Source: Sphingomonadaceae bacterium (lineage in GTDB: Bacteria; Pseudomonadota; Alphaproteobacteria; Sphingomonadales; Sphingomonadaceae). From it: a stretch of 64,000 nucleotides of DNA. The position numbers and the translations under genes were made by a program. Each line of letters opens with the position of its first letter. The first letter of the stretch is position 1. Under the pieces are notes generated by a model, which searched no databases, was not told the origin of the DNA, and saw only the letters and a program-made list of their open reading frames with translations. The stretch is from contig JANYGC010000120.1 of NCBI GenBank assembly GCA_025359425.1, positions 7,931-71,930 on the forward strand, read 5' to 3'. This document shows, piece by piece, positions 6,224-37,100 of the stretch.

Positions 6224-6370
6224 ACGTTCCAGCGGCCATGAGTACGGTCCTGCTCTAAAGTAACGGCAGCTTGCGTTCCGATTGCGGACGTTGCCCCAAA
6301 GATTTCAACTTGCGGTGAAAGCGAGACAGATTTAGCATCTCGTAAACAGGCATTCAAAGGGGGGTGTAAG

Positions 6371-7153: not shown

Positions 7154-7239
7154 GACGAGCGGAAAGGAATACATCATCTTACCTTGCGCTCAATATTGTC
7201 CGATCCCCACCTTTAATCAGACATTGTTCAGCTTCAAAC

Positions 7240-11351: not shown

Positions 11352-11355
11352 CCCG

Positions 11356-17834: not shown

Positions 17835-17842
17835 GGGGACGT

Positions 17843-22482: not shown

Positions 22483-22496
22483 CTACGGGGGGAGCC

Positions 22497-23774
22497 ATGG
22501 CCGGATCGCGGGTGAAATGGGTGATGCTGACGCTTGCTGCCCTGACCATCATGGGCAGCTATTACACCTACGACAGCATTGCGCCGGTAACCGGATTGCT
22601 GCGCGATCAGCGGGGCTTTACCCAACTGCAGATCGGGCAGCTCAACGCGGTGTTCAACCTGCCGAACATTGCCTTGGCACTGGTTGGCGGGATCCTGATC
22701 GACCGGATCGGGGCGGCAACGGCAATCCAGATTGCGACCGTGGTCTGCACGATCGGAGCAGTGCTGACTGCCGTGGGTGATCCTTACGAACTGATGCTCG
22801 TCGGGTGCCTCTTGTTCGGACTGGGCAACGAAACCCTCTACATCGCCTTGCTGGTAGGGATTGCGCAGTGGTTCCATCGCGGTGGGAGCGCGTTGGCAAT
22901 CGCACTGTTCTTTGCAATGGCACGGGTCGGATCGTACTCCGCCGATAAATCGACCAGCTGGTTCGCACAGCTCTATGCTTCGGGTTGGCAAGCGCCCTTG
23001 TGGCTGGCTGCCGGGCTGACCGCGGGCGGCTTGGTAACAGCATCGATCTATTTCCTGATCGACCGGCGCTTGGCGCACCTGCGCGTGGCGGGGCAGAAAT
23101 CAGAGGCCTTCCGACTGAAAGATCTGGCCAGGTTCAGCCCTTCATTCTGGTATATCCTGTGGTTGAACGTGCTGTTCGCCAGTGTTTTCTTCCCGTTCCG
23201 TTCGACCTTTTCGATCCAGTATTTCCAGGATGTCAAGAGCATGAACCTGGCCGATGCGGGAACCGCGAACTCCTATGTCTTTGCGGCTGCAATCTTTGCA
23301 ACGCCAGTTGTTGGCTTGATCGCAGACCGGATTGGACGCCGCGCGACCTTGCTCGCGCTCGCGGCTGCCTTGATGCCCCTGACCTTCTTCCTGCTTGCCA
23401 CCACAAATTATGGCCTGTGGATCACCACTGCGCTGATGGGGATCAGTTTTTCGGTCATCCCCGCTCTGATCTGGCCCGCCACGGCAATGCTGGTTGACCG
23501 GCGCCGCGTGGGCACGGCGTTTGGCTTGATCAATATGATCCAGAGCCTCGGGCTCGCCGTTTCGAATTACTTCGCTGGCTGGCTCAACGATCATTTTCAA
23601 GCCGGACCCCAGAACCCGGCGGGCTATAACCCGATGCTGTCAATGTTTGCCGTACTCAGCCTGGTGGCTCTCGGTTCAACGGTGCTGTTGTTGCTGCGCG
23701 AACGCCGGCAGCCATCTGGCGGGATCGAGGCCCGGTTCATCGGCGATGCCGACCCGGCGTTCGTCCGGCCGTGA
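22497..23774 (+). CDS. MFS transporter
   Basis: ATG at 22497 with GGGGGAG upstream. About 425 aa with roughly 12 hydrophobic segments (read by eye) and a DRIGRR-type loop (IADRIGRRATLL). Confidence 0.8.
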   Translation: MAGSRVKWVMLTLAALTIMGSYYTYDSIAPVTGLLRDQRGFTQLQIGQLNAVFNLPNIALALVGGILIDRIGAATAIQIATVVCTIGAVLTAVGDPYELMLVGCLLFGLGNETLYIALLVGIAQWFHRGGSALAIALFFAMARVGSYSADKSTSWFAQLYASGWQAPLWLAAGLTAGGLVTASIYFLIDRRLAHLRVAGQKSEAFRLKDLARFSPSFWYILWLNVLFASVFFPFRSTFSIQYFQDVKSMNLADAGTANSYVFAAAIFATPVVGLIADRIGRRATLLALAAALMPLTFFLLATTNYGLWITTALMGISFSVIPALIWPATAMLVDRRRVGTAFGLINMIQSLGLAVSNYFAGWLNDHFQAGPQNPAGYNPMLSMFAVLSLVALGSTVLLLLRERRQPSGGIEARFIGDADPAFVRP

Positions 23775-23919: not shown

Positions 23920-24879
23920 ATGAAGCCTGCGCAGGAGTTCGATCTTCACGCAATTCAGGTCTTCATTCTGACTGTCGAACTGGGCGGAATGTCGCAGTGT
24001 GCCGGGCATTTGCAAATCACCCAGTCGGCCGTATCGCAAACCATAGCGCGGCTGGAAGGAAGTATCGGAATGCCGCTATTTGATCGCTCGATGCGTCCGC
24101 TGCGGCTGACGACAAGCGGGCGCTCGATGGTTGAACGCGGCAGGCGGCTGCTCGCGCTGGCACGCAGCACATATGACGATATCCGCGCTGGCGCCAATCT
24201 GCCCTTGAGCAACCTGACGATCGCAATGTCGTTCAGTCTGGCCAATCAGCTCACCGCTGCCATTCTCTCCCGCCTGGGCGACCGGGCCGGGCGGTGGAAC
24301 ATCCGTTCGGGTATTTCGCTTGAGCATCAGGACGAATTTATGGCGCGCGACATCGACATGCTCCTGACCGGCAGCTTCAATCTTGAACACCGGGACAACC
24401 TCGAATTGCACCCGGTGTTCGAGGAATGCTTCGTGATCGTATTGCCGGCGAGTTATAAAAAGCCGCTGCAGATCGACACCGATCCCGGCGAGTTGCCGTT
24501 CATCCGGTTCTCGCGACTGACCGGCATGGGGCAGCAGATCGAACGTCAGATCATGCGGCTCAAGCTTGGCCTGCGCCAGGTGGTGGAAGTGGAATCATCG
24601 CATCAACAGCTGGCTTTGGTAGCGGCTGGTCTGGGCTGGACGATAACCTCGCCAGTGTGCCTGTCCGCATCGCCGGAGTTGCTGCGCAAGACGCGGATCG
24701 AGCCGATGCCGCGCGGCCGGTTTTCGCGCACCGTACAAGTGGTGGCCCGGGCCGGCGAGCTCGGCGCGCTGCCCCAGGAGGTCGCCCGGCTCTGTGCGAG
24801 CGAACTCAAGGCGGTGACGTTCCCACCGCTGATTGCGCAAATGCCTTGGTTGGAGGAGCAGATCACATGGCACGCTTGA
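23920..24879 (+). CDS. LysR-family transcriptional regulator
   Basis: 319 aa. N-terminal wHTH LHAIQVFILTVELGGMSQCAGHLQITQSAVSQTIARLEGSIGMPLFDR. Confidence 0.85.
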   Translation: MKPAQEFDLHAIQVFILTVELGGMSQCAGHLQITQSAVSQTIARLEGSIGMPLFDRSMRPLRLTTSGRSMVERGRRLLALARSTYDDIRAGANLPLSNLTIAMSFSLANQLTAAILSRLGDRAGRWNIRSGISLEHQDEFMARDIDMLLTGSFNLEHRDNLELHPVFEECFVIVLPASYKKPLQIDTDPGELPFIRFSRLTGMGQQIERQIMRLKLGLRQVVEVESSHQQLALVAAGLGWTITSPVCLSASPELLRKTRIEPMPRGRFSRTVQVVARAGELGALPQEVARLCASELKAVTFPPLIAQMPWLEEQITWHA

Positions 24880-26183
24880 CCGCAGCTACCCTGATGGCGT
24901 TCGCCGCATTGCTGGTTGCTGCCAGTCCCGGCGCGCCGCTGCCGCCCAGTGTGCCCGGCATCGATGCACCGCAACTGGCACCGCTTGGTCCGCACGCAGT
25001 AGGGTTTCGCAGCGTGACCCTGGTCCACAAGGCCCAGCCTGATCTGCTCAATGCCGATCCTGCCACCGGGCGCGTCCACCTCCACGACCGTGCGCTGACC
25101 GTCGATATCTGGTACCCGGCCAAGGCCCGGCGCGGCGCGGCTCCGGTGACCTATGCAGGCAGCCTTTACGGGGAGCCTCCCAGACCCCCCGCCAAGTTCA
25201 CCGTGCCCGGTCTTGCAATTCGCGGCGCCGCGCCAGACGGGCAAGGCTACCCCTTGGTGATCTTTTCGCACGGCTACAGCAATGCCCCGGCAGTCATGAC
25301 CTGGCTGACTGAGAATCTGGCCTCAAAAGGCTATGTCGTTGCCGCCATTCATCACGAAGATCCCGACCCCTATATAGTCTCGGCCGACAAGCGGGCTGCG
25401 CCCAACTTCAACCGGCCGGTCGATATTGCCTTCGTTGCGGCCGAATTGCGCCGCGATCTGGGCGCGCTGATCGACCCCGCTGAACTGGCGCTGATCGGGT
25501 ATTCGCAGGGCGGCTACGGAGTCCTTGCCGCTGGTGGTGCCACTCTTGACCCCGATGGTCCGAACATGGGCCAGGTTCCAGGAGGGTGGATGAAACGGCT
25601 AGCGCGCGGTGCTGCGACCGAGGCCGAGGGCAAGGTTCCGGGGGTCAAGGCGATCGTGGCCATCGCCCCGGCCGGCGGCGCGCCGCGCAGTGCATGGGGG
25701 AGCGCAGGCCTGCTCGGCATCACCGCGCCGTTGCTGCTGATCCAGGGCGATGCTGACCTGACCGTCGAGTATAAGACCGGAGCGCTTGCCGATTTTGAGA
25801 ATGCGAAGAACTCGGATCGATATTTGCTGACATTCAGGCAAGCCGGCCACGACATCGGACTCAGCCCCGCACCTGCGCAAATGCGCGGCAACCTGTGGGA
25901 CATAGATTGGTTTCAAGATCCGATCTGGCGGGCCGACCGCGTCAACGCGATCAACCTGCACTTCATAACCGCGTTCCTGGCGGTCCACCTCAAGCATGAT
26001 ACCGGCATGAGCAGTTTCCTCGACCTACCTGTTGAAGATGCCGGCGATGGCGTTTGGAACGCCCCCGACAAAACGCCGTGGAGCGCCTATAGTCCGGGTG
26101 GGAACGGCGTCACTCTGTGGAAGGGCTTCCAGCGCCGTCATGCGCAGGGGCTGACCCTGCGCCATGCGGCTGCAGGACGGTAA
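24867..26183 (+). CDS. Secreted alpha/beta-hydrolase (PAF-acetylhydrolase / dienelactone-hydrolase-like esterase)
   Basis: ATG at 24867 overlaps the LysR end by 13 nt. Signal-peptide-like MARLTAATLMAFAALLVAASPGAP. Nucleophile elbow GYSQGG. About 438 aa. Confidence 0.7.
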   Translation: MARLTAATLMAFAALLVAASPGAPLPPSVPGIDAPQLAPLGPHAVGFRSVTLVHKAQPDLLNADPATGRVHLHDRALTVDIWYPAKARRGAAPVTYAGSLYGEPPRPPAKFTVPGLAIRGAAPDGQGYPLVIFSHGYSNAPAVMTWLTENLASKGYVVAAIHHEDPDPYIVSADKRAAPNFNRPVDIAFVAAELRRDLGALIDPAELALIGYSQGGYGVLAAGGATLDPDGPNMGQVPGGWMKRLARGAATEAEGKVPGVKAIVAIAPAGGAPRSAWGSAGLLGITAPLLLIQGDADLTVEYKTGALADFENAKNSDRYLLTFRQAGHDIGLSPAPAQMRGNLWDIDWFQDPIWRADRVNAINLHFITAFLAVHLKHDTGMSSFLDLPVEDAGDGVWNAPDKTPWSAYSPGGNGVTLWKGFQRRHAQGLTLRHAAAGR

Positions 26184-26186
26184 CAG

Positions 26187-26699
26187 CTAAACCAGCGATT
26201 TTGCCGCGACGGTCCAAAAGTGGATCATGTCGCGAGCATAGCTTAGCGGGACATAGGCCAGGCAGGCGTCATCACTTTCGACATAAAGCCGGACGTTGAC
26301 GTGATCGATCAGCGTTGCGGCGCTGGACCCGGCGGCAAAATCGGCCGATTCAGCATCGAAAACGCCGCCTTCCATCAGCAGGCTGCGCCAGCCGGGCCCG
26401 CCCAGCCGCACTCGCACCACGCCGCCGCCGATCGCCGTCAAGCTGCCATCAGCGCCAAGAATTTCGGCCAAGCCGGCAGGATCGCCCTCGGCCAGCCAGA
26501 CCGTCGGTTCGTAACGGATCAGCCGCATTGCCGACAGTTGCAGAGCTGCACCTAGAACAGGCAAACTGCTACCTAGCGCCGCTTCAAAGCGGTTGGCGAC
26601 GACTGCGGGGTTGCTCCAGATTTCGAACACATGGAGCGGCGCAGCAGGCAAGGCGGTGATCGTTATGTCAGTCACGGTACCGCTCTCCCGCCGTGTCAT
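26187..26699 (-). CDS. soxG: Sarcosine oxidase gamma subunit-like (set 2)
   Basis: Last gene of the minus-strand operon. ATG at 26699 chosen; an alternative GTG at 26675 gives an 8-nt overlap with the soxA2 stop. About 170 aa, the same size as set-1 SoxG. Confidence 0.7.
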   Translation of the reverse strand: MTRRESGTVTDITITALPAAPLHVFEIWSNPAVVANRFEAALGSSLPVLGAALQLSAMRLIRYEPTVWLAEGDPAGLAEILGADGSLTAIGGGVVRVRLGGPGWRSLLMEGGVFDAESADFAAGSSAATLIDHVNVRLYVESDDACLAYVPLSYARDMIHFWTVAAKSLV

Positions 26700-29439
26700 A
26701 GAAGTGCGGAGCGACGACGCGCACCGCCGCGCTTTGGCTGCGGGTGGGCGACGTTGCAACAAGCTCCTCGCCGTGCCGGGCGAAGCCGTCCACCAGCTGG
26801 CCCAGTGCGATCGAGCCGCTTTCGAGCACGCGCCGCGCGGCTGCGGTAACGTGGCCGCCGGCTGGCTGGCCGAGGGCGGTGACGAGCATCGCGCCTTCGG
26901 GGATCGTTCCGGCGATGGCTTCCAGCCCGACCAGTTGCTTGCGCCCGGGTGCGGTCAGCCCCGGGCGGGCGAGCCCGGCGGCGCCGATATAGCCGCCAGC
27001 CTTGTTCAGCATCTTGTCGAGTGCAAGGTCATGCGGGGTCAGCCGGCCGTCGACTTCGCCGCCGACCACCAAATGCCCTTTTTCGATGCGGAGGAATTCC
27101 ATCGCCTCCATCCCGTAAAGGCTGCCACCCTGCGCGGTGACTGCGGCCTCGCAGGCGTTCCAGACCGGTTCGGCAAGGCTGGCTTCGGCATAGATTTCGA
27201 ACGCCCGCTCGCCGCTGTAGCTCGCCGCGAGGACCATGACCGGGCTCCCCGCAATCGAAGCGCCAACTGCCGACATGTGGCGCGGCACCTCTTCGCCGAT
27301 CAGCCCGGCCAGCACTGCTTTGGCGGTTGGCCCGGCCACTGCAATCCCCGCGTAATGCTCCTGCACATTGACCACCGAAACCTTGAGCTGGGGGCACAGG
27401 AACTGGCGGACGTAGGAGAGGTGAACTGCCATCCGGTCGGCCCCGCCGGTCGAACTGGTCAGGAGGTAACGATTTTCGGCCAGCCGCCACACCGTGCCGT
27501 CATCGAAGACCAGCCCGTCTTCGCGCAGCATGAAAGTGTAACGCCCGCGCCCGACTGCCAGTTTGCCCACCGTGGTCGCGCAGACCAGTTCGAGCAGCTG
27601 CACCGCGTCCGGCCCGCTGACTTCGAACTTGGCGAGGGTCGAGACGTCGGTCATGCCCACTGCGGTGCGCACGCTGCGCGCCTCTCGCAAGGCAGCTTCG
27701 GCCAAGTTTTCACCACCCTGCGGATAGGCGCGCGGGCGCTTCCAATACCCCAGCGGCTGCCAGATCGGCGTCTTTGCCTGATGCACATCGAAGAGCGCCA
27801 GACGGCGCAAATGTGCGCCTGCATCGCGCTCGGTCCGGCCCGCGAGCAGCCCCATGGTGACCGGCGTGTAGGGCGGGCGGAAGGTGGTCAGGCCGGCCTC
27901 GGGAATGGCCACGCCCTGCTTTTCAGCGAGCCGGCCAAGCGCCGCCATGTTGCTCGTCTTGCCCTGATCGGTCGCCATCCCCAACGTGGTGTAGCGCTTC
28001 AGGTGTTCGACCGAACGATACCCTTCGGCCCAGGCGAGATCGACATCGCCCAGCGAGACGTCGTTCTGGAAATCGATGAACGCCTTGCCCGGATTTTCCG
28101 GCGGCGGGGTTGGACCGACTGGAGCCACGCTGGCCGCGGACCCGACCGATACAACGTTTTGCCGCGCGCCGCCGGGCAGGAACGACTGGCTGGCGTCATC
28201 CCATTCGAGCGCTGCGCCGCCAGCCTGCATGTGGAGGTGGACCACCGGGGTGAACCCGCCCGACATCGCCAGCAAGTCGGCCCGCCAGTGCATCACCTTG
28301 CCGCCGACCCGGGCGCTGACTTCGCGCAGATGATGCCGCGCGCCTTTGGTCGCCAGCGGCATGGCGTCATTGTGAACCGGAAATCCGCTGGTCGCTCCGG
28401 CCGGCACCGGGCGCGTATCGAGCACCGCGACAATTTCGGCACCGGCATCGCGCAGAGCCGTAGCGGTGAGGTAGGCATCGTCGTTGTTGGCTGCGATCAC
28501 CACGCGGCGGCCCGGGACCACACCGAAGCGCCGCACATAAGTGCGCACCGCCTGGCTGAGCATCACTCCCGGGCGATCATTGTGCGCGAACGCAAGCGGG
28601 CGTTCCAGCGCGCCCGTGGCCAGGATTACCCGGCCGGCACGGACATGCCACAGCCGCTGGGCGATCCCGCCCGCTGGCGGCTCGCCCGGTTCCGCCAGGC
28701 GCTGGCTCACCGTGATGAGGTTATCGTCCCAATAGCCTGCTGCCGTAGTCCGCAGCAGGATCCGACCGCCAAGCTCACCGATCCGCGCCGCCGTGGCTTC
28801 AGCCCAGGCCGGATCGAGGTCCTGCGGATCGCGGACCAGCGACGGCGCAAGAATGCGGTCTTGCTCGACCAGCATGACACGTTCGCCGGCTTCGGCCGCA
28901 GCCAAAGCTGCGCTCAGTCCGGCCGGTCCGGCCCCAACCACCAACACGTCGCAAAACGCCGCGCGCTGGGTAAAGCGATCGGGGTCCGCTGCAGTTGGAG
29001 CATCGCCCAGCCCGGCGGCGCGGCGGATGAACCATTCGTAGAACATCCAGCGTTTGGCCGAGCCGAAAAAGGTCTTGTAGTAGAACCCGGCGGGCAAGGC
29101 TTTCGCGGCGAGCCCAAGCACCGACCCCGCATCGAATGCCAGGCTGGGCCAGCGGTTCTGGCTGCGCGCCACCATCCCGTCATAGACGAACAAATCGGTC
29201 GCGCGGGTGTTGGGCTCTTCGCGGCCCCCGGCTCCGACTGTCACCAGCGCGTTGGGTTCTTCCACCCCGGCGGCCATAATCCCGCGCGGGCGGTGGTACT
29301 TGAAGCTGCGCGCCACCAGCCCGATGCCATTGGCGAGCAAGGCAGCCGCCAGCGTATCGCCCGGGCGGGCCAGCAGCGCCCGGCCATCGAACGTAAAGCG
29401 GATCGCGCCGGCCGCACCGCCACGCCGGGGTCCGTTCAT
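26668..29439 (-). CDS. soxA: Sarcosine oxidase alpha subunit-like (set 2)
   Basis: 923 aa. Motifs FDGRALLARPGDTLAAALLANGIGLVARSFKYHRPRG, VLVVGAGPAGLSAALAAA and a GcvT-like C-terminal half (YSGERAFEIY). Confidence 0.9.
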   Translation of the reverse strand: MNGPRRGGAAGAIRFTFDGRALLARPGDTLAAALLANGIGLVARSFKYHRPRGIMAAGVEEPNALVTVGAGGREEPNTRATDLFVYDGMVARSQNRWPSLAFDAGSVLGLAAKALPAGFYYKTFFGSAKRWMFYEWFIRRAAGLGDAPTAADPDRFTQRAAFCDVLVVGAGPAGLSAALAAAEAGERVMLVEQDRILAPSLVRDPQDLDPAWAEATAARIGELGGRILLRTTAAGYWDDNLITVSQRLAEPGEPPAGGIAQRLWHVRAGRVILATGALERPLAFAHNDRPGVMLSQAVRTYVRRFGVVPGRRVVIAANNDDAYLTATALRDAGAEIVAVLDTRPVPAGATSGFPVHNDAMPLATKGARHHLREVSARVGGKVMHWRADLLAMSGGFTPVVHLHMQAGGAALEWDDASQSFLPGGARQNVVSVGSAASVAPVGPTPPPENPGKAFIDFQNDVSLGDVDLAWAEGYRSVEHLKRYTTLGMATDQGKTSNMAALGRLAEKQGVAIPEAGLTTFRPPYTPVTMGLLAGRTERDAGAHLRRLALFDVHQAKTPIWQPLGYWKRPRAYPQGGENLAEAALREARSVRTAVGMTDVSTLAKFEVSGPDAVQLLELVCATTVGKLAVGRGRYTFMLREDGLVFDDGTVWRLAENRYLLTSSTGGADRMAVHLSYVRQFLCPQLKVSVVNVQEHYAGIAVAGPTAKAVLAGLIGEEVPRHMSAVGASIAGSPVMVLAASYSGERAFEIYAEASLAEPVWNACEAAVTAQGGSLYGMEAMEFLRIEKGHLVVGGEVDGRLTPHDLALDKMLNKAGGYIGAAGLARPGLTAPGRKQLVGLEAIAGTIPEGAMLVTALGQPAGGHVTAAARRVLESGSIALGQLVDGFARHGEELVATSPTRSQSAAVRVVAPHFYDTAGERYRD

Positions 29440-29699
29440 GGCAAAGCCTCCGGGCCGGCGGCGCGGATCGCAGTGATGGCATGGGTCATGCGGTGCCGGG
29501 TCAGCACCAGCCAGGCGCGGCAGCCAAAGGTGTGGCGCCAGATTTCATCGTCGAGCCCGCGCGGGTTGGCACGGGTAAACAGGCGCGCCATTGCTTCGGC
29601 GGGGGCGGCCCCGGGCTGGACGACGGAATCGACCGTGCGTTCGTAACTGAACTCGGTCTGGGCACGCGGGCCGCAGTGGGGGCAGGTAATCAGTAACAC
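29436..29699 (-). CDS. soxD: Sarcosine oxidase delta subunit-like (set 2)
   Basis: GTG at 29699, 13 nt after the soxB2 stop, with AAGGGG upstream. VLLITCPHCGPR...WRHTFGCRAW gives the same Cys3His pattern as set 1. 87 aa. Confidence 0.75.
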   Translation of the reverse strand: MLLITCPHCGPRAQTEFSYERTVDSVVQPGAAPAEAMARLFTRANPRGLDDEIWRHTFGCRAWLVLTRHRMTHAITAIRAAGPEALP

Positions 29700-29712
29700 G
29701 TCAGCGCCCCTT

Positions 29713-30969
29713 TCAGCGGTGGTTCGGCAGCGGGCCGACGCCGTTTTCGTCGATCGTGTCACCGCGGGCAAAGCGGCCGAGATCGAACGGAGCGTTCAGC
29801 TTGTGCGGCGTGCCGGTGGCCAGCGTGTGGGCATAGGTCCAACCCGAGGCCGGGGTTGCCTTGAACCCGCCGTAACACCAGCCCCCGTTGAGGAAGAGAC
29901 CCGGCACCGGGGTCGGGCCGATGATCGGCGAGCCGTCGAAGCTCATATCGGTGACCCCGCCCCAGGTGCGCAGCATCCGCAGCCGCGAGAGCGCCGGAAC
30001 CAGCGCGATCGCCTGCGCAATCGCCCCTTGGGTTACCATCGGCTGGCCGCGCTGGGCATAGCTAGGCCAGTTGTCCGGATCGCCGCCCATCACGATCCCG
30101 CCTTTGTCCGACTGGCTGATATAACAATGGAGCGACTGCGACATGATCACGCCGTTGATCATCGGCTTGACGCCTTCGGTGACCAGCGCTTGCAAGGTCT
30201 GGCTTTCCACCGGTAGTTTCAGCCCGGCCATCGCGGCGACATGACCGCTGTGTCCCGCCACGCAAATTGCCACCCGGCCAGCGCCAATCCGGCCGCGCGT
30301 AGTCTCCACGCCGACCACGGCATCGCCCTGCCGGACAAATCCGGTGACTTCACATTTCTGGATGATATCGACGCCCAGCCGGTCCGCGCCGCGGGCATAG
30401 CCCCAAGCCACCGCATCGTGCCGGGCGGTGCCGCCGCGCCGCTGGATCAGCCCGCCTTCGATCGGAAAGCGCGCATCGCGCGACATATCGAGCTGCGGTT
30501 CAAGTTTTGCCACCTGGTCGCGGCTGAGCAGTTCGGCATCGATACTGTCCACCCGCATCGCATCGCCGCGTTCGGCCAGCCGGGTCATATCGCTATCGCT
30601 GTGCCCCAGCATCAAGGCTCCGCGCGGGCTGAACATCACGTTGTAGTTAAGTTCGTCCGAGAGATGCTCCCACATCTTCAGCCCGAATTCGAAGAAATCG
30701 TGCAGCGGCTTCTGGCGGTAGTTGGAACGCACCAGCGTGGTGTTGCGGCCGGTGTTGCCGCCGCCGATCCAGCTCTTTTCCAGCACCGCCACGTTGCGGA
30801 TTCCGTGGACGCTCGCCAGGTAATAAGCGGTGGCCAGGCCATGTCCGCCGCCGCCGATAATGATCACATCGTAGTTGGCCTGGGGCTCAGGATCGCGCCA
30901 CGCCGGTTGCCAGTGGCTCTGGTCGTTGAAGACCCCGCGCAGCAACCCGAGCGCCGAATAGCTGGTCAT
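29713..30969 (-). CDS. soxB: Sarcosine oxidase beta subunit-like (set 2)
   Basis: ATG at 30969 overlaps the upstream stop (ATGA). Motifs YDVIIIGGGGHGLATAYYLASVHGIRNVAVLEKSWIGGGNTGRNTTLVRSNY and RRGGTARHD. 418 aa. Confidence 0.9.
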   Translation of the reverse strand: MTSYSALGLLRGVFNDQSHWQPAWRDPEPQANYDVIIIGGGGHGLATAYYLASVHGIRNVAVLEKSWIGGGNTGRNTTLVRSNYRQKPLHDFFEFGLKMWEHLSDELNYNVMFSPRGALMLGHSDSDMTRLAERGDAMRVDSIDAELLSRDQVAKLEPQLDMSRDARFPIEGGLIQRRGGTARHDAVAWGYARGADRLGVDIIQKCEVTGFVRQGDAVVGVETTRGRIGAGRVAICVAGHSGHVAAMAGLKLPVESQTLQALVTEGVKPMINGVIMSQSLHCYISQSDKGGIVMGGDPDNWPSYAQRGQPMVTQGAIAQAIALVPALSRLRMLRTWGGVTDMSFDGSPIIGPTPVPGLFLNGGWCYGGFKATPASGWTYAHTLATGTPHKLNAPFDLGRFARGDTIDENGVGPLPNHR

Positions 30970-32102
30970 GCAATCGGCATCCACCCGCGCTGCTCGCGCC
31001 AATCAGCCTCAAGCCCGGCAAAGCGCGACAGGCCCAGAATGCTGATATCGGCGAACGAGCACGCTTCGTCGATCACCAGATCGCGGATGGCATGGCCCGA
31101 AGCCGGTGACAGACCAAATCCGACCCCGGACATCGACGCGACCACGACATTGTCGGGGCTGGTCAGGCGATCGATAATCGGGCGGCCATCGGGCGAATTT
31201 TCGATCACCCCGGCCCAGCTGCGGATCACATTGAGGTGCGCGGCCTTGGGCAACAGCTCGGCCAACCGCCGCGCAAGATTGCGGGCGAGCGGGGTCGAGG
31301 GGCGTGCAGCCGGACCCGTCTCGTCGACGTCGATCCATTCGTGCGGCCCGCCGCCATAGGCAAGGTTGCCGCGCAATGTCTGGCGGCCGTAAAGTTTGTG
31401 ACCATCAACCCCGCCCAGCGGCATCATCGGCGCGGGTTCGGTGACAATCATCTCTGCCCGCGCCGAGGCGAGCGGGATGGTCACACCCAGCTGGGCCATC
31501 AAGTGCGGGATCTGCGGCCCGGCCGCCACCACGACTGCGTCGCAGCCATAGGTCGCGCTGGCGGTCTTGACCGCGGTCACTTTGCCGCCGGCCGTTTCAA
31601 AACCCGTCACCGGGTTATGCTGGATGATCGTCCCGCCAAGATCCTGCAAGGCCCAGGCATAGGCCTGGACGCTGCGCTGCGGATTGGCGTGGCCGCCGAA
31701 TTTGTAGTGAACTCCGCCAAAGCAATTGTCGCCCGCCAGCGGCACGGCGTCCTGCACTTGCTTCACGTCGAGCACCTCGACCGGATGGTCAAGCCGCCTG
31801 TGCCGTTCGGCGACGAAGCGATACTGCTCCCATTGCCGCTCGGTCATCGCAATCAGGATGCGTTCCTTCTGATGCTCGGTCGGATAGCCGAGCAGGTCGT
31901 CCATCTGCGGCCACAGGCGCTGCTCTTCATCGAACAAGGGACTGGAATAATGCGATGCACCGCCGCCGTTGCGGCCCGATGCTTCCCACCCGACGATGAA
32001 CTTGTCGAGCACCGTCACTTTGACGCCGGAGCGCGCCAGCCACCATCCAGCGCTCAGGCCGGTGACGCCGCCGCCGACGATGACAACTTCCGACCCGCTC
32101 AT
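30966..32102 (-). CDS. FAD-dependent (DAO-family) oxidoreductase; opine oxidase subunit B / HcnC / LhpB-like
   Basis: 378 aa. Motif VVIVGGGVTGLSAGWWLARSGVKVTVLDK. ATGA overlaps at both ends. Paired with the upstream OoxA-like subunit. Confidence 0.8.
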   Translation of the reverse strand: MSGSEVVIVGGGVTGLSAGWWLARSGVKVTVLDKFIVGWEASGRNGGGASHYSSPLFDEEQRLWPQMDDLLGYPTEHQKERILIAMTERQWEQYRFVAERHRRLDHPVEVLDVKQVQDAVPLAGDNCFGGVHYKFGGHANPQRSVQAYAWALQDLGGTIIQHNPVTGFETAGGKVTAVKTASATYGCDAVVVAAGPQIPHLMAQLGVTIPLASARAEMIVTEPAPMMPLGGVDGHKLYGRQTLRGNLAYGGGPHEWIDVDETGPAARPSTPLARNLARRLAELLPKAAHLNVIRSWAGVIENSPDGRPIIDRLTSPDNVVVASMSGVGFGLSPASGHAIRDLVIDEACSFADISILGLSRFAGLEADWREQRGWMPIA

Positions 32103-33562
32103 TCGTACATCCCCGTATAAAGCATGCCACGATGCTCGTCCTCATAGGGTGTACCAATGTCTTGGACCGGCACCCATTGCGTCGGGATTCCGAACCACAC
32201 GTCCCATGCCGCTTCCATTTCGGCGGGTTCGTTCCAATCGGCCAGGATCTTCATTGGCAGCGGGCGCACGGGAGCGCGGTGACTGGCCAGCGGGATCGTG
32301 CCGAACGGCTGCCCCGCTTCGATCGCCAGCAGCATCGCAACCTGATCACGGCACCGGCGTCCCTGGCAGACCCCCATCCCGGCGCGGGTCAGCCGCTTGA
32401 TCTGGTCTGGATTGGCCGGGCCGTCCTCTAGCAAGGTTTCCAGCGACCGGGCGCACATCGCAGGCGGGCGGGTGAGGTAATTGGGCGGCTGGACCCCGAT
32501 GAGGTCGGCGCGGGTCACGTCCTCGCACTGGCAGATGATCGTGTCGGGCGCACAAACCGAGGCCAGCGCGCGGACCCAGTCCATGCGGTACTCGACGTGG
32601 TCAAACCCGCTGTCGGCCAGACCGGCACAATCGCCGACGGCGGAGACATACTCTTCGCCGCGCGGCACATAACCGCCGCGCTTGCCATCGAGTTCGCGCG
32701 GGCCGTGCATGGCATCGACCAGTTCGATCGAGGGGACCAGTCCCACCGCTACGCAGATGGTGTCACAAGCGATGATCTCACCCGTGGTCAGCGTCGCAGC
32801 CTCAACTCCGTCGATCCCGCCCTTGGCCGAAACGATCACTGCGCTGCAGTGAATGGCAATCCCGGCCGCGCCCAGCCGGGCGACAAGGTCGGCCGAGCCT
32901 TGCGGTGCGGCGCGCACTTCGACAAGTCCGGCCACTTCGAGCCCATGTTCGACCGCGATCAAGGCGGTTTCCAGCGCCAGGTCATGCGATCCCAGGATCA
33001 GTATGCGGCGGCCGGCAAAGGCATCATAGCGGGTCAGCAGCATCTGCAGGGCGCCCGCGCCCATGACGCCGGGCTGGTTCCAGCCGGGGAAGGCCAGCGC
33101 CAGATCGCGGGCCCCGGTGGCGAGCACAATCCGGCCGAACCCGACCAGCCACGAACGCTCCGCGTCAGCCAGACCGACCACCCGTTCGGGCAGGCTCTGC
33201 ACGCCAGGACCATTGCGGTAGACCCCCCAGGCGCAAGTGCCGAGCAACAGCTCGACTCCGGCCTCCATGGCTTCCTCAAGCGCGGGCATCGACATGAACA
33301 CCGCTTCCAGCATCCGCTCGCTGTGCTGCGTCGCCGCGGTCATCCGGCCACCGAAATAGAGCGGCACGTCATTGCCCATCAGCGCGCCGGAAACCGGGTT
33401 TTCGTCGACCAGCAGCACCGACGCGCCGGCTTGTTTCGCTTCGAGGGCCGCAGCGATGCCGCTCGGCCCGGCCCCGACCACGACCACGTCATAGTTCGCC
33501 TCGGCAGCACTGCGGGTGCCGCCCACCGCGCAGAGGTCCGTTCCGGTGAAATTGAGTTCCAT
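32099..33562 (-). CDS. FAD/NAD(P)-binding oxidoreductase with BFD-like [2Fe-2S] domain; opine oxidase subunit A / HcnB-like
   Basis: ATG at 33562 shares 1 nt with the upstream stop; a TTG lies at 33565. Motifs YDVVVVGAGPSGIAAALEAKQAGASVLLVDE, Cys cluster ICQCEDVTRADL and GMGVCQGRRC. Confidence 0.8.
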   Translation of the reverse strand: MELNFTGTDLCAVGGTRSAAEANYDVVVVGAGPSGIAAALEAKQAGASVLLVDENPVSGALMGNDVPLYFGGRMTAATQHSERMLEAVFMSMPALEEAMEAGVELLLGTCAWGVYRNGPGVQSLPERVVGLADAERSWLVGFGRIVLATGARDLALAFPGWNQPGVMGAGALQMLLTRYDAFAGRRILILGSHDLALETALIAVEHGLEVAGLVEVRAAPQGSADLVARLGAAGIAIHCSAVIVSAKGGIDGVEAATLTTGEIIACDTICVAVGLVPSIELVDAMHGPRELDGKRGGYVPRGEEYVSAVGDCAGLADSGFDHVEYRMDWVRALASVCAPDTIICQCEDVTRADLIGVQPPNYLTRPPAMCARSLETLLEDGPANPDQIKRLTRAGMGVCQGRRCRDQVAMLLAIEAGQPFGTIPLASHRAPVRPLPMKILADWNEPAEMEAAWDVWFGIPTQWVPVQDIGTPYEDEHRGMLYTGMYE

Positions 33563-34839
33563 CAAACTGCTTCCAAGGCCTGCGCGAGATCTGCAATCAG
33601 ATCATCGACATGTTCAAGTCCGACTGACAACCGCATCGTGCCATCGGCAATTCCGCCCTCTAGCCGCTGCCCGGGCGAGAGGGCATAGTGCGTGGTGCTG
33701 GCCGAATGGCAGATGAGCGTTTCCGATCCGCCCAGGCTGACCGCCAGCTTGAGCAGGCGCAGCTGGTCGAGCAGGCGGAAGGCCTCGGCCTCGCCGCCGT
33801 GGAGGTGAAACGAGAAGGTCGATCCCGCGGCCTGGCATTGCCGGTCATAAACCGCGCGCTGGCGGCTGCCTTCGGGCAGGAAACCGAGGTAGGTGACCCC
33901 CGCCACCTTGGGGTGATCACGCAGGAATTCTGCGACCGAGCGGGCGTTGCTCATGGCGCGTTCGGTGCGGACGTGAACCGATTCAAGGCTGCGGGTCACC
34001 AGCCACGCGGTATAGGGGTCGAGGTGGTTGCCCCAGGTGGTGCGCATCGCCCTGAGCGGTTCGATCAGTTCGCGCCGACCGCTCACCCCGCCGGCCAGCA
34101 GGTCGCTGTGCCCGCCGCAGTACTTGGTCAATGAGGTCATGCACAGGTCAACACCTTGTTTGATCGGGCGCTGGGCAAACGGGCCGAGCAGCGTGTTGTC
34201 CACCACGACCAGCGGGCGATGCTCCTGCCGCTCGCCGATCTTATTGGCCAGCCGCACCATCAGATCCAGATCGATGATCGCCGCCGTGGGATTGGCCGGC
34301 GTTTCGGCGATGATCAGTTTGAGCGGGCCTTGGGCCAGCGCCTGATCGGCCGCCGCATGCACTGCCGCTTCGTCAGTTCCATCGAGATAAGCAGCGGCGT
34401 GGCAACCGTACTGCGGCATGACACTGTTGTAGAGCATATCGACGCCGCCATAGATCGGCCTGCCGTGCAGCACGCTGTCTCCCGGGCGCAAGAAGGCCAG
34501 CGCGATCGAGGAATGCGCGGCCATTCCGCTGCTGTAGGCGACCGCCGCCTCGGCCCCGTCGATCGCTGCCAGCCGGGCTTCGAGAATGTCCAGCCCCGGG
34601 TGGCCGAGCCGCGCATAAATGTGCTGCTCGGCCCCTGCCAGCGGGCCGGTGCCGTCAAAGAAGGCTTGGTGGACATCGCGGGCGTGCTGCGCCGAGGGAT
34701 AGACGAAGGTCGAGGTCATGTAGATCGGCGGCTTGACCGATCCCGATGCGCTGTGCGGATCATAGCCGAAAGCTACGGCCAGCGTTTCCGGTCTCAAACC
34801 GGTGGGCGGATCAATCGACATGGGCAGCAAGGTATGCAC
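33562..34839 (-). CDS. Cys/Met-metabolism PLP-dependent enzyme (methionine gamma-lyase / cystathionine gamma-synthase family)
   Basis: 425 aa. Motifs PPIYMTSTF and YARLGHPGLDILEARLAAIDGAEAA. PLP-Lys context MTSLTKYCGGHSDLLAG. Start at 34839, or alternatively 34821 (MSIDPP), overlapping the Rieske gene end. Confidence 0.85.
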   Translation of the reverse strand: MHTLLPMSIDPPTGLRPETLAVAFGYDPHSASGSVKPPIYMTSTFVYPSAQHARDVHQAFFDGTGPLAGAEQHIYARLGHPGLDILEARLAAIDGAEAAVAYSSGMAAHSSIALAFLRPGDSVLHGRPIYGGVDMLYNSVMPQYGCHAAAYLDGTDEAAVHAAADQALAQGPLKLIIAETPANPTAAIIDLDLMVRLANKIGERQEHRPLVVVDNTLLGPFAQRPIKQGVDLCMTSLTKYCGGHSDLLAGGVSGRRELIEPLRAMRTTWGNHLDPYTAWLVTRSLESVHVRTERAMSNARSVAEFLRDHPKVAGVTYLGFLPEGSRQRAVYDRQCQAAGSTFSFHLHGGEAEAFRLLDQLRLLKLAVSLGGSETLICHSASTTHYALSPGQRLEGGIADGTMRLSVGLEHVDDLIADLAQALEAV

Positions 34840-36022
34840 GCGCCTTGTCGCAATACCAGTCTGTAAAGCGCATCACGAGCATCTCGGCGTCTTCGGAGTA
34901 AGGCCCGGGGGTATAGCCCGGACTGATTACGCCCGCCTGGTTGTTCTCGGCCAGTTCCTTGTCCTGCAGGTTGGTGAGGGTCCACAGATCGGTCAGCTGG
35001 TCGAGCTGGTAATCGACCCCTTCGACCGCGTCCTTGTGGACCAGCCATTTGCTGAACACGTGCGTTTCGGTCGGGCCAACCGGCATGCAGCTGAACATGA
35101 AGGTATGATCGGCGGTGGCATGGGCAAACAGGTGCGGGTCGATCGCCCAGCGCATCGAGCCGAGGTCGCCCGCATCCGCTTCGCACATCAGCTTTTTGGA
35201 AAGGTGCTGTCCATCCCCCGAAATCGATCGGCACCCTTCGTTCAATGCGAAGCGCGCTACTTGCCACCAGTGTCCCTCGACCGAAGCATGGGCCAGACCG
35301 AGCCGGTCCATCCGGTCAGCAAAGGCGGCATTGCGAGCATTTTCGCCCAGATCGAAATGCTTGGACATCCCCACCGGGAAAGTTTTGGAAAGTTCAGGAT
35401 GCCCGGTGGCGCAGTGATAGCACTCGCGCGCGTTTTCCATCACCAGCTTCCAATTGGCATGTTCCACCAGCACCGCCGAAGCTGCCAGCTTGGCATTCTT
35501 GAAATCGTGCGGAGCGGCATAAGCGGCGAATTTCGCGGCAAAGTCTGCAATCGGTGGCGGGGTTTCGGCAAGACAGATGAACATGCCCCCGGCAATGCAT
35601 TCGATCGCCAGCGGTTTCAGCCCGTGTTCGGCTTTGCTGAAATCGTCGGGCATGCGCCCCGCCGCAAGCAAGCCGCCATCGAGGTCGTAAGTCCAGCGGT
35701 GATAGGGACAGACCAGCCGTGCGGCCGAGCCGGTGCCCGGCTTGCAAATTTGCGATCCCCGATGCCGGCAACTGTTGTGAAAAGCCTTGATCTCGCCGTC
35801 ACGATTGCGGGTGATCAGCACCGGCCATTGGCCCACGGTCAACGCCAGGTAGCTGCCGGGTTTGGGCAGTTCGCATTCGAACCCGGCCATCAGCCAGCTG
35901 TGGCCATAAATCGCGTCCATATCGAATTCATAGGCGCGCTGATCGAGATAGAGACCCTGCGGCAAGCTATGGTCCTCGCGGCGCACGGCGAATTGGCCGG
36001 CAGCCCATGCCAGATCGGACAT
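34811..36022 (-). CDS. Rieske/mononuclear-iron oxygenase alpha subunit, paralog 3
   Basis: ATG at 36022 with GGGGAG 7 nt upstream; a TTG lies at 36025. Motifs CRHRGSQIC...CPYHRWTY and NWKLVMENARECYHCATGHPEL. First gene of the eight-gene minus-strand operon. Confidence 0.85.
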   Translation of the reverse strand: MSDLAWAAGQFAVRREDHSLPQGLYLDQRAYEFDMDAIYGHSWLMAGFECELPKPGSYLALTVGQWPVLITRNRDGEIKAFHNSCRHRGSQICKPGTGSAARLVCPYHRWTYDLDGGLLAAGRMPDDFSKAEHGLKPLAIECIAGGMFICLAETPPPIADFAAKFAAYAAPHDFKNAKLAASAVLVEHANWKLVMENARECYHCATGHPELSKTFPVGMSKHFDLGENARNAAFADRMDRLGLAHASVEGHWWQVARFALNEGCRSISGDGQHLSKKLMCEADAGDLGSMRWAIDPHLFAHATADHTFMFSCMPVGPTETHVFSKWLVHKDAVEGVDYQLDQLTDLWTLTNLQDKELAENNQAGVISPGYTPGPYSEDAEMLVMRFTDWYCDKARAYLAAHVD

Positions 36023-36073
36023 CAAAATTCTCCCCAGAGCTTGTCAGGCAGGATCATGACCCAGGAACCAGCG

Positions 36074-36122
36074 ATAGAGAAATCGACTTTAGGCATGGCC
36101 CTATCTCGAATAGTCTGCCTAT
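36074..36122. promoter_or_regulatory. Candidate LysR-type operator array in a divergent promoter region: phased ATAG/CTAT half-sites
   Basis: Read directly: GATAG (36073-36077), CTAT (36101-36104), ATAG (36110-36113), CTAT (36119-36122). CTAT-N5-ATAG-N5-CTAT has 9-bp spacing. It lies between the Rieske-3 start (36022) and the LysR start (36180). Confidence 0.35.
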
Positions 36123-36179
36123 CAGGGCAGCGCCGTCACTCGGAACTGAAAAGGCCAGGCCATCGCGAACAAGTCTGCC

Positions 36180-37100
36180 ATGAATCGGCGCTGGCTGCCG
36201 CTTAACGCGCTGCGGGCCTTCGAAGCGGTCGGCAAGCATCTGAGCTTCACCGGCGGCGCTGCGGCGCTGTCGGTTTCACAAAGCGCGATGAGCCGCCATG
36301 TCAGCGCACTCGAAAGCCTGCTGGGCAAGCAACTGTTCGAGCGCGACACCGGCCGCTTGTCGCTCACCCCGGCGGGGGAAGAGCTGCTGGCAGTCGTCGC
36401 CAAGTCGCTGGAACGGATCGAGCAGACGATGAATGCGATCCGCGACGAAAGCGTGCCGGGGCGGGCAATGCGGCTGCATGTGCCGCCCTCGCTGCTCCAG
36501 CAGATGTTCATGCCGATGCTCGGCGACTTCCATCGTGACCATCCAGAGTTCCGGATCGACGTATCCAGCGCCAATGTCACCGGCTTGCCGCCAACCGAGC
36601 TCGACATGGCGATTGTCTATGACCGCCCCAACATCGATGACCGGATCACCGATCTGTTGTGGATGGTCCGGGTTGCACCGCTCTGTTCACCGGCAACTGC
36701 GGCGGCGGCGCCGGGCAAATCGCTGGCGGAGTTCCTGGCCGCGCAGGAGTTGCTGCACCTCAAGCTGGACGGCCTGCCGCGCGATCTGCTGTGGGGCGAT
36801 TACCTGCAGCGCAATGCAATCACCCGGCCGATGCTGGGCGGGCTCGCGTTCGATACGGCGATCGCTTCGGCTAAATATGCGATGACCTCGGGCGGGGTCA
36901 TGCTGGGCGATGTCGACATGTTTGCGGCCGAGGTTGCTGCCGGGCAACTGGTGATGCCGTATGACGCCGTGATCGAGGATGGCTACGGCTACTACCTCAA
37001 GCTGCATGCCGACGATCTGGCCGATCCCGCCATAGCGGTGTTCAGAAGCTGGCTGATCAGCCGCTTCGCAGCTCTGCGTGGCGTCACTCCGCGAGAATGA
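36180..37100 (+). CDS. LysR-family transcriptional regulator (GcvA/AmpR-like N-terminus)
   Basis: 306 aa. Motif LPLNALRAFEAVGKHLSFTGGAAALSVSQSAMSRHVSALESLLGKQLFER. Divergent from the eight-gene operon. Confidence 0.85.
   Translation: MNRRWLPLNALRAFEAVGKHLSFTGGAAALSVSQSAMSRHVSALESLLGKQLFERDTGRLSLTPAGEELLAVVAKSLERIEQTMNAIRDESVPGRAMRLHVPPSLLQQMFMPMLGDFHRDHPEFRIDVSSANVTGLPPTELDMAIVYDRPNIDDRITDLLWMVRVAPLCSPATAAAAPGKSLAEFLAAQELLHLKLDGLPRDLLWGDYLQRNAITRPMLGGLAFDTAIASAKYAMTSGGVMLGDVDMFAAEVAAGQLVMPYDAVIEDGYGYYLKLHADDLADPAIAVFRSWLISRFAALRGVTPRE

Follow-up and report, generated by a model that had tools for sequence, protein, structure and literature searches.

A conserved sphingomonad operon that joins a PLP-dependent gamma-family enzyme to putative N-demethylation genes: a candidate pathway of betaine catabolism

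Introduction

What might an operon be for in which the gene of a Cys/Met-family pyridoxal 5'-phosphate (PLP) enzyme is set among oxygenase and oxidase genes of the kind known from betaine breakdown? The question is raised by a stretch of 64,000 nucleotides (nt) from a Sphingomonadaceae bacterium (GenBank assembly GCA_025359425.1, contig JANYGC010000120.1, positions 7,931 to 71,930 of the forward strand), here referred to as the window. Eight of its minus-strand genes encode a Rieske oxygenase, the PLP enzyme, a two-subunit OoxAB-like flavoprotein and a second SoxBDAG set, and a LysR-type regulator gene diverges from them. The original prediction, made from the letters of the window, had taken this group for a candidate undescribed catabolic pathway. 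Here we find the gene combination to be conserved as a unit, and we consider it an evenly balanced judgement that, under the control of LysR, it serves to break down an alpha-amino acid with N-methyl groups (a betaine), most likely three of them, for which homoserine betaine would be the best fit.

Results

The eight open reading frames (ORFs), read from the window between positions 36022 and 26187, follow each other in the order Rieske-PLP-OoxA-OoxB-SoxB-SoxD-SoxA-SoxG and lie at the predicted coordinates together with the divergent LysR gene (Table 1); profile searches agreed with the predicted gene family for all products. Start and stop codons overlap at six of the seven junctions, as read directly from the sequence. 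The PLP and OoxA genes meet in TGATG with one nt common to both, ATGA overlaps are present at OoxA/OoxB, OoxB/SoxB and SoxD/SoxA, and SoxA and SoxG overlap by 8-32 nt, varying with the choice of start codon, while SoxB and SoxD are separated by a 13-nt gap with AAGGGG inside. The predicted list of junctions stood except for the first: the Rieske gene and the PLP gene overlap by 11 nt with a PLP start at ATG 34821, and by 29 nt only if the gene began at GTG 34839. We place the start at the ATG because the PLP homologues are uniformly 419 amino acids long. A Shine-Dalgarno-like GGGGAG precedes the Rieske ATG, and a search of the minus strand inside the operon for intrinsic terminators gave no convincing one. 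By these features the eight genes are translationally coupled, and they are predicted to share a single operon transcript.

To judge the combination as a unit, the PLP protein was scanned against one genome per bacterial species; together with one on a plasmid of Novosphingobium capsulatum, this gave 81 loci. In 38 loci, almost all from Sphingomonadales, the PLP protein is at least 56% identical to that of the window. The full order, from the divergent LysR gene through Rieske-PLP-OoxA-OoxB-SoxB-SoxD-SoxA-SoxG, is present in 20 of these 38 (PLP identity 56-92%), and about 14 further, truncated loci keep it up to the contig end. The gene order is maintained across at least 35 species-level genomes from several families, and a truncated Caulobacteraceae contig (L036) holds its start. 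None of the 42 loci with a PLP identity of 48% or less has the operon neighbours; the relatives at 45-48% (L040-L046) stand in unrelated contexts with a peptide ABC transporter, LigB, EAL or glycosyltransferases. The same arrangements came up again in metagenome contigs when a distant orthologue was used as the seed of a scan. The carrier loci come mostly from metagenome-assembled genomes (MAGs) of glacier-fed streams, lakes and rivers; the N. capsulatum core resides on a 611-kb plasmid, the sole syntenic record in a megablast of plasmids. The conserved order, the regulator and the conserved upstream motif described below thus mark the cluster as an operon that is conserved and regulated, far from what chance would bring together, and the synteny bears out the prediction that the combination is a real unit. 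In two loci, single genes are found as two adjacent pieces, OoxB in L010 (11303-12437) and SoxA in L027 (15304-18112), which possibly reflects a frameshift or an assembly error.

The LysR-type protein scores 172 bits with the GcvA subfamily model and 146 bits with that of the choline-sulfate transcription factor, both below the respective cut-off, and its gene is divergent from and adjacent to the operon in 28 of the 31 loci with sufficient upstream sequence. As had been predicted, the 157-nt region in between carries ATAG/CTAT repeats: four sites, at 36074, 36101, 36110 and 36119, compared with about 0.5-1 expected, a number of at least four being reached in 1.9% of shuffles of the region. 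Two of the sites are overlapped by a box with the consensus TTTGAcATaGGGcTATGCGAAAAnnnGATT across 17 aligned loci. This conserved box includes ATAGGGCTAT, and the arrangement expected of a LysR-type regulator, a divergent gene with a dyad-containing operator, is accordingly present; we regard the motif as a putative, operator-like element.

With 514.8 bits over its full length, the PLP enzyme passes the cut-off of 504 of the PRK07049 subfamily model (NF005455, 'cystathionine gamma-synthase family protein'). It misses those for methionine gamma-lyase (MGL; TIGR01328, 333 bits with a cut-off of 550; NF005695, 311 with 666), for MetZ (281 with 522 and 274 with 510) and for cystathionine gamma-synthase (CGS; 263 with 513 and 242 with 505). 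The closest solved structures, 5ijg and 7swh, are structural-genomics entries with no assigned function, followed by methionine gamma-lyases at about 248 bits. In an alignment with Citrobacter freundii MGL the catalytic Tyr/Arg, Asp, Lys and Arg are kept (SLTKY, IYGG, VVDNT and RLSVGLE), among them the Lys to which PLP is bound, the Tyr stacked on it, the Asp at the pyridine N and the Arg for the carboxylate. The same alignment places YGG of the PLP enzyme against YGC of MGL, in which Cys115/116 is the MGL-specific active-site residue, and Val occupies the position of the Glu by which cystathionine gamma-lyase (CGL) and CGS bind the distal amino group; insertions specific to the subfamily are also present. 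The Val in place of Glu and the missing Cys hint at a neutral leaving group, not a thiomethyl group. Based on its sequence, the protein appears to be an active member of PRK07049 which is neither a canonical MGL nor a CGL or CGS. An identity as canonical MGL was rejected on the missed equivalog cut-offs and the Cys-to-Gly replacement, and one as biosynthetic MetB/MetZ on missed cut-offs and the constant embedding of the gene in the operon. The gene is therefore not a biosynthetic passenger, the relatives found outside such a context being distant ones. We propose that the enzyme would act as a gamma-lyase on the demethylated amino acid.

In the Rieske protein, the CxH...CxxH and ExYHCxxxH motifs are intact (SCRHRG...VCPYHRW and NARECYHCATGHP in translation). 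Among solved structures, the stachydrine demethylase Stc2 (3vca/4qup) and 3n0q come closest with about 360 bits, compared with 121 for the carnitine monooxygenase CntA, so that the protein is much nearer to Stc2 than to CntA or to aromatic dioxygenases. The NCBIfam model for GbcA/BmoA (NF058607) gave 430.4 bits, short of the curated cut-off of 670, and as a GbcB-type reductase is not adjacent either, an identity as canonical GbcA was rejected. Neither the three Rieske genes of the window nor those of the orthologous loci have a GbcB/HpbC-type reductase gene beside them. Electrons must come from an unconventional donor or from one encoded at another site, as is common for reductases in sphingomonads; it might be speculated that they reach the Rieske protein via the Fe-S domain of OoxA. 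We propose the Rieske protein as the first demethylase, which would act on a quaternary nitrogen.

The pair of genes predicted to encode an OoxAB-like flavoprotein shows the architecture of OoxAB and NoxAB, that is, a coupled Pyr_redox_2 plus small 2Fe-2S subunit and a DAO subunit, devoid of a folate domain. The two-subunit architecture in the earlier label was thereby confirmed, while the closest solved relatives turned out to be sarcosine oxidase and Pyrococcus PDH1: SoxA (2gag/1vrq) and PDH1 alpha (1y56_A) for the OoxA-like subunit, which also matches TIGR01372 (soxA) partially at 133 bits, and PDH1 beta (1y56_B) and SoxB for the OoxB-like subunit. The label used here hence refers to domain architecture and not to the sequence of Agrobacterium OoxAB. 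Few genes of the operon are as well conserved as OoxB (85-93% in close loci). OoxA and OoxB are 41% and 60% identical to proteins of Paracoccus denitrificans whose genes directly follow a Rieske and reductase pair on the DYTN-1 plasmid (NZ_CP096595.1, 484016-502099). Judged from gene content, this pair appears to be Pden_4896/97, the closest GbcAB according to a preprint. This suggests that a Rieske enzyme and an OoxAB-like flavoprotein form a recurring two-step demethylase module. The P. denitrificans locus also faces a divergent operon for MmgE/PrpD, an acyl-CoA ligase, an acyl-CoA dehydrogenase, a nitrilase-like hydrolase and a betaine ABC transporter, and the function of the whole gene set appears to be undescribed.

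The last four genes keep the soxB-soxD-soxA-soxG order, and their SoxA has the folate-binding GCV_T domain. SoxB is the only one of the four subunits to reach its TIGRFAM cut-off; the placement of the divergent SoxG after SoxA is kept in about 20 loci. Compared with the first Sox set of the window, the subunits are 42-50% identical (SoxB 50%, SoxA 42%), and the set is best described, as far as sequence comparison goes, as a divergent paralogue of a sarcosine-oxidase-family enzyme. A second SoxBDAG, as predicted, is consequently real and in order; it does not belong to the invariant core, since three loci do without it. In Segnochrobactrum (L035, L090), a gene resembling those of monomeric sarcosine or N-methyl-Trp oxidase takes the place of SoxBDAG.

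The genes near the operon in other genomes include an NAD-dependent formate dehydrogenase cluster, PurU and, judged by eye, ORFs resembling S-(hydroxymethyl)glutathione dehydrogenase and S-formylglutathione hydrolase; in Segnochrobactrum, an OpuAC-type betaine ABC transporter adjoins the LysR gene. These one-carbon (C1) detoxification, PurU and transporter neighbours speak for a predicted oxidative removal of N-methyl groups.

A further group of neighbours consists of hydrolases and uptake functions. The product of the exported alpha/beta-hydrolase gene of the window, which is convergent with SoxG and overlaps an upstream second LysR gene (LysR2, 23920-24879), resembles PAF-AH and cutinases; such a gene adjoins SoxG in the window and in at least nine loci and lies near the LysR gene of the cluster in L037 and L091; it occurs in three lineages. 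A Foldseek search of the PDB with a structural model of the hydrolase, of moderate quality (mean predicted local distance difference test, pLDDT, 70) returned the feruloyl esterase 5yae as well as PETases and cutinases at TM scores of 0.4-0.6; the model matches generic carboxylesterases and gives no information at the level of the substrate. An operon-specific role of this hydrolase was rejected, as the LysR2-hydrolase pair occurs without the operon, and for the same reason we treat it as an ambiguous accessory, possibly an esterase for choline esters or lipids. Many sphingomonads, among them L087, L088 and L082-L084, keep the pair beside BCCT and the first SoxBDAG set, also where the eight-gene operon is missing. 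Other exported hydrolases are a DUF3089 protein with GHSQG and a signal peptide, encoded after SoxG-Spns-PurU in L098 and straight after Spns in L032, and, encoded 3' of OoxB in N. capsulatum, an S15 hydrolase (CocE/NonD) that likewise has a signal peptide. A gene for a Spinster-family transporter of the major facilitator superfamily (MFS) is located directly 3' of SoxG in seven loci (of the Sphingomonas type and Novosphingobium nitrogenifigens) and in two metagenome loci. Among solved proteins its product matches HnSpns best (6e8j, E 7e-49), then SPNS2 and SPNS1, and the solved relatives include sphingosine-1-phosphate transporters; the Spinster family also carries lysophospholipids. Genes for TonB-dependent receptors recur at the loci, including that of N. 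capsulatum.

The richest variant is that of a cultured strain, N. nitrogenifigens DSM 19370 (NZ_GL876926.1), where the genes run glycerol kinase (GlpK), TonB receptor, a 293-amino-acid protein, the divergent LysR, Rieske-PLP-OoxAB, patatin-like lipoprotein, SoxBDAG and Spinster-type MFS, so that GlpK and a TonB receptor are upstream of the operon and the patatin-like lipoprotein gene is inserted between OoxB and SoxB. Two other arrangements were observed upstream of LysR. In L013, L025, L034 and L091, the TonB receptor gene is accompanied by one for a tetratricopeptide-repeat (TPR) protein with a sulfotransferase-like C-terminus (judged from sequence), and in L027, a Sphingomonas MAG, genes of the phosphatidylserine decarboxylase family and for a class-III aminotransferase (5190-7591) directly precede LysR.

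On its other side, the LysR gene of the window is adjoined by a gene for an AceE-like thiamine-diphosphate E1 protein, whose best solved relative is the pyruvate dehydrogenase E1 of Escherichia coli. Orthologues with 75-76% identity adjoin LysR in L029, L032, L033 and L098, and in L023 the gene is inside the operon, so that, counting the window, six genomes or contigs have it at the cluster. The protein might handle a 2-oxoacid such as 2-oxobutyrate; its link to the operon is tentative.

Table 1. Features of the window (positions counted from its first nucleotide)
Feature	Position	Strand	Evidence and remarks
Rieske non-haem iron oxygenase, Stc2/GbcA-like	34811-36022	-	PF00355 and PF00848 (Rieske and Ring_hydroxyl_A)
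Cys/Met-family PLP enzyme, PRK07049 subfamily, 419 amino acids	33562-34821	-	PF01053, 321 bits
OoxA-like/Sox-alpha-like flavoprotein subunit	32099-33562	-	Pyr_redox_2, 92 bits, and Fer2_BFD (2Fe-2S); no folate domain
OoxB-like/Sox-beta-like DAO-family flavoprotein subunit	30966-32102	-	PF01266, 210 bits
SoxB, beta subunit, second copy in the window	29713-30969	-	TIGR01373, 642 bits, above cut-off of 529
SoxD, delta subunit, GTG start	29436-29699	-	PF04267, 72.6 bits; TIGR01374, 74 bits, below cut-off of 116.5
SoxA, alpha subunit	26668-29439	-	Fer2_4, SO_alpha_A3, folate-binding GCV_T, GCV_T_C; TIGR01372, 975 bits, below cut-off of 1164
SoxG-like gamma subunit, divergent	26187-26699	-	TIGR01375, 30.8 bits, E 2.3e-7, below cut-off of 144; no Pfam match
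Divergent promoter/operator region, 157 nt	36023-36179		conserved box, in operon orientation CTATTCGAGATAGGGCCATGCCTAAAGTCGATT
LysR-type regulator, GcvA-like subfamily	36180-37100	+	HTH_1 and LysR_substrate Pfam domains
Exported alpha/beta-hydrolase, 438 amino acids, GYSQGG	24867-26183	+	weak PAF-AH_p_II and PETase Pfam matches; signal-peptide-like N-terminus
AceE-like thiamine-diphosphate E1, 784 amino acids	37084-39438	-	Transketolase_N and Transket_pyr; aceE model, 156 bits, cut-off 860
Three DMGDH-like genes	109-2523, 2529-4976, 8841-11351		
Two further GbcA-like Rieske genes	4973-6223, 11305-12606		
First SoxBDAG set	12944 to about 17800		
BCCT transporter	17771-19450		
BetA	about 19465-21120		TIGR01810, 823 bits
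MFS transporter	22350-23774		
AptA omega-aminotransferase	7240-8556		734 bits

Discussion

The step order, the chemistry and the substrate are what we infer from the enzymes and their neighbours described above. In the first step, the Rieske protein, supplied with electrons by a reductase encoded elsewhere, would hydroxylate one methyl group of a quaternary nitrogen, giving formaldehyde and the N,N-dimethyl compound. The OoxAB-like flavoprotein, having no folate domain, would then oxidise this tertiary amine to the N-monomethyl compound, and the folate-linked SoxBDAG would take the last methyl group as 5,10-methylene-tetrahydrofolate, leaving a free alpha-amino group. Finally, the PLP enzyme would eliminate the side-chain substituent, with 2-oxobutyrate, ammonia and the leaving group as products. 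Three N-oxidising systems would account for three methyl groups and would thus lead to a primary alpha-amino acid, the sole form that the PLP enzyme can bind. We lean somewhat towards this sequence of N-demethylation followed by PLP-dependent cleavage. Stepwise N-demethylation, the logic put forward in the original prediction, is supported by the neighbours concerned with formaldehyde, formate and folate, by the Paracoccus locus in which GbcAB-like and OoxAB-like genes meet, and by the Segnochrobactrum variant.

The nature of the substrate's carbon skeleton is suggested by the last enzyme. In the Cys/Met PLP gamma family, gamma-substituted 2-aminobutyrates undergo alpha,gamma-elimination, from which 2-oxobutyrate and ammonia result, and canavanine gamma-lyase is a catabolic precedent; an enzyme of this family would therefore imply a gamma-substituted 2-aminobutyrate skeleton and 2-oxobutyrate as product. 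To our knowledge, homoserine betaine is the sole known natural alpha-N-trimethyl amino acid with such a skeleton. It is a measured aquatic metabolite and forms the head group of diacylglyceryl-trimethylhomoserine (DGTS), a lipid which replaces phospholipids in many algae, mosses, fungi and phosphate-starved bacteria. A homoserine-betaine skeleton is accordingly our favoured assignment, made tentatively and with somewhat less than even confidence. The compound might be taken up as free osmolyte or as the glyceryl ether that would remain after exported esterases deacylate algal or fungal DGTS; in the latter case the PLP step would also account for cleavage of the ether, releasing glycerol. The exported esterases and lipases, the Spinster carrier, the TonB receptors and a single GlpK fit such a lipid-derived form circumstantially, and a substrate derived from DGTS is in our estimate rather doubtful. 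Doubtful to a similar degree is the most far-reaching version, in which the loci would encode the first pathway known to degrade free homoserine betaine and the trimethylhomoserine head group of DGTS, comprising exported lipases, import of glyceryl- or lyso-trimethylhomoserine by TonB receptors and Spinster, three demethylases and cleavage of the otherwise stable homoserine ether by the PLP enzyme, with glycerol, 2-oxobutyrate and ammonia as products.

Several observations weigh against homoserine betaine as substrate or against the pathway as a whole. The PRK07049 subfamily lacks a characterised member, and its two solved structures are unannotated; free homoserine is, moreover, not obviously in need of a dedicated lyase. 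A GbcB/BmoB-type reductase was absent from the window and from the 81 loci in a tblastn search with the P. denitrificans reductase as query. The composition of the operon varies: in N. capsulatum, Segnochrobactrum (L035, L090) and an uncultured alphaproteobacterium (L037), the four-gene core of Rieske, PLP, OoxA and OoxB occurs with LysR and without SoxBDAG, and in Novosphingobium sp. B 225 and a related MAG (L020, L021) the Rieske gene is absent and the operon begins with the PLP gene. A gene specific for homoserine or glycerol does not recur consistently at the loci, GlpK being found once, and the window itself contains neither Spinster MFS nor PurU nor TonB receptor of the recurrent types. 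The LysR2-hydrolase pair is also found beside the first SoxBDAG/BCCT module of a genome without the eight-gene operon (L087). Reports of DGTS exist for snow algae and for green algae adapted to cold, and the freshwater, glacier-stream and lake origin of the MAGs fits DGTS-producing algae in a circumstantial manner.

Among other explanations, the operon might be a paralogous route for glycine betaine (or choline), proceeding via dimethylglycine and sarcosine to glycine, with a side role for the PLP enzyme such as clearing the methionine, homocysteine or cystathionine that would accumulate under a flood of C1 units into the folate and methionine cycles. GbcA is indeed the best-scoring model for the Rieske protein, the LysR protein resembles the GcvA and choline-sulfate regulators, the window holds BetA, BCCT and DMGDH-like genes, and in P. 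denitrificans a Rieske gene, seemingly Pden_4897, is followed by close OoxAB homologues. However, the window already has a full set of a second Rieske enzyme and SoxBDAG along with its three DMGDH-like genes, the Rieske protein and all Sox subunits of the operon but SoxB stay below curated cut-offs, and the PLP gene is coupled on both sides, is present in every locus and has its orthologues confined to the operon context. As known operons for glycine betaine carry GlyA or SdaB instead of a gamma-family enzyme, we consider this explanation unlikely. An N-methylated amino acid of the methionine type or another sulfur compound would give the PLP enzyme the role of a methionine gamma-lyase, producing a thiol and 2-oxobutyrate after N-demethylation. 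MGLs are the closest characterised relatives outside the enzyme's own subfamily, the Val before the SLG motif is common to both, and source databases label the PLP homologues methionine gamma-lyase; yet the score of 333 against 550 and the Gly in place of the active-site Cys speak against it, the flanks examined contain no thiol or sulfur-oxidation genes, and we know of no abundant natural N,N,N-trimethylmethionine or similar compound. A sulfur substrate is thus improbable.

Equally improbable in our view is an opine-like or aminocarboxypropyl secondary amine, for example a nicotianamine/phytosiderophore-like or opine-type metallophore, of which OoxAB would cleave the C-N bond, the PLP enzyme eliminate the gamma-amine, and the Rieske and Sox enzymes take N-alkyl fragments. 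Such a compound would suit the two-subunit architecture of the OoxAB/NoxAB/HcnBC type, and gamma-substituted 2-aminobutyrate units are natural substrates of the PLP family. The TonB-dependent receptors flanking several loci, including that of N. capsulatum, would suit it as well; they carry little weight because they are very common in sphingomonads. In contrast, the Rieske protein belongs specifically with the demethylases of quaternary amines, SoxBDAG and the neighbours for C1 detoxification point to removal of methyl groups, and the OpuAC-type and BCCT transporters are of the betaine type. That the operon merely assembles unrelated neighbours, a MetB/MetZ-like enzyme, an amine oxidase pair and a sarcosine oxidase that share no single pathway, is hardly credible. 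Except that SoxBDAG or the Rieske gene is absent in some genomes, nothing specific favours such a view, which was rejected on the overlapping start and stop codons, the order kept in species of several families and the conserved regulator and operator-like motif; the missed MetB and MetZ cut-offs argue against it, too.

Breakdown of an N-trimethylated amino acid, as preferred here, follows in each component and in its overall logic the known betaine pathways, and its new elements would be an obligatory step by a PLP enzyme of the gamma family, the OoxAB-like enzyme as middle demethylase, and the substrate. In Pseudomonas, Chromohalobacter and Paracoccus, glycine betaine is degraded by GbcAB/BmoAB, then DgcAB or DMGDH, then SoxBDAG, which is the same succession of Rieske enzyme, flavoprotein and folate-linked SoxBDAG, and genes concerned with formaldehyde and formate, as well as PurU, are nearby, as at the loci described here. 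Unlike in that pathway, the operon Rieske protein is not a GbcA by score and has no adjacent GbcB, SoxA, SoxD and SoxG are below their cut-offs, the middle enzyme is OoxAB/Sox-alpha-beta-like and not DgcAB or DMGDH, and a PLP gene without counterpart there is placed between the genes for the first and the second demethylase.

Similarly, the pathway for proline betaine employs a Rieske enzyme and a flavin demethylase with an adjacent LysR gene (PMC3950512). In this system for proline and hydroxyproline betaine (Stc2; HpbB1C1, HpbA, HpbR) of Sinorhizobium, Paracoccus and Rhodobacter, a Stc2-like Rieske gene has LysR beside it and the flavin demethylase next to it, as here, and the substrate is likewise an alpha-N-methylated amino acid, the resulting amino acid being degraded afterwards. 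It differs in that only two demethylations lead to an end in PutA or D-Hyp enzymes, in its own reductase HpbC, and in the lack of both SoxBDAG and a PLP gamma-family enzyme (PMC3950512).

By architecture, the OoxAB-like pair can be likened to OoxAB/NoxAB, HcnBC, LhpBEF and Pyrococcus PDH1, which have the same coupled Pyr_redox_2/Fe-S and DAO subunits, are related to SoxA/SoxB and are without a folate domain. In contrast to the opine oxidases, the context here is one of demethylation genes and not of opine transport and arginine catabolism, and the nearest contextual homologues of the pair follow the GbcAB-like pair in Paracoccus. With MGL, CGL and CGS, the PLP enzyme shares the fold and the catalytic Lys, Tyr, Asp and Arg, whereas its membership in PRK07049, the absence of the MGL Cys and the CGL/CGS Glu and its subfamily-specific insertions set it apart.

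The open-access full-text literature, to which our survey extended (subscription journals being outside its scope), contained no paper in which this gene set is given a pathway or in which the breakdown of homoserine betaine or of the DGTS head group is described. Within that scope the prediction that no described betaine pathway combines the four enzyme types is upheld.

The operon offers a testable candidate for the breakdown of homoserine betaine or DGTS in dozens of sphingomonad genomes from freshwater and cold habitats. Cultured carriers exist besides N. nitrogenifigens DSM 19370, namely Sphingomonas psychrolutea CGMCC 1.10106, Sphingomonas sp. MMS24-J45, N. capsulatum HAMBI 103 with the core alone and the Rieske-less Novosphingobium sp. 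B 225. Should the DGTS reading prove true, it would give the PRK07049 subfamily and the bacterial Spinster homologues their first physiological roles. Even with another substrate, the operon would represent a new ending of betaine catabolism, with a lyase of the PLP gamma family coupled to the demethylations, and would provide a function for PRK07049 and for an OoxAB-like pair as middle demethylase next to Rieske enzymes. In either case, the annotation of genes now labelled 'methionine gamma-lyase', 'sarcosine oxidase' or 'aromatic ring-hydroxylating dioxygenase' could be improved.

Remaining parts of the window

The operon lies next to a choline/betaine/C1 island at positions 1-24879, the left half of the window (Table 1). 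The two other Rieske proteins of the window, at 415 and 277 bits, both miss the GbcA cut-off of 670. A gene with the FAD-dependent oxidoreductase domain FAD_oxidored (PF12831) is broken into parts in two frames, one at 20805-21965 that covers positions 1-191 of the profile and one at 21937-22482 that covers 241-416; the split is a frameshift, due either to a pseudogene or to a sequencing error.

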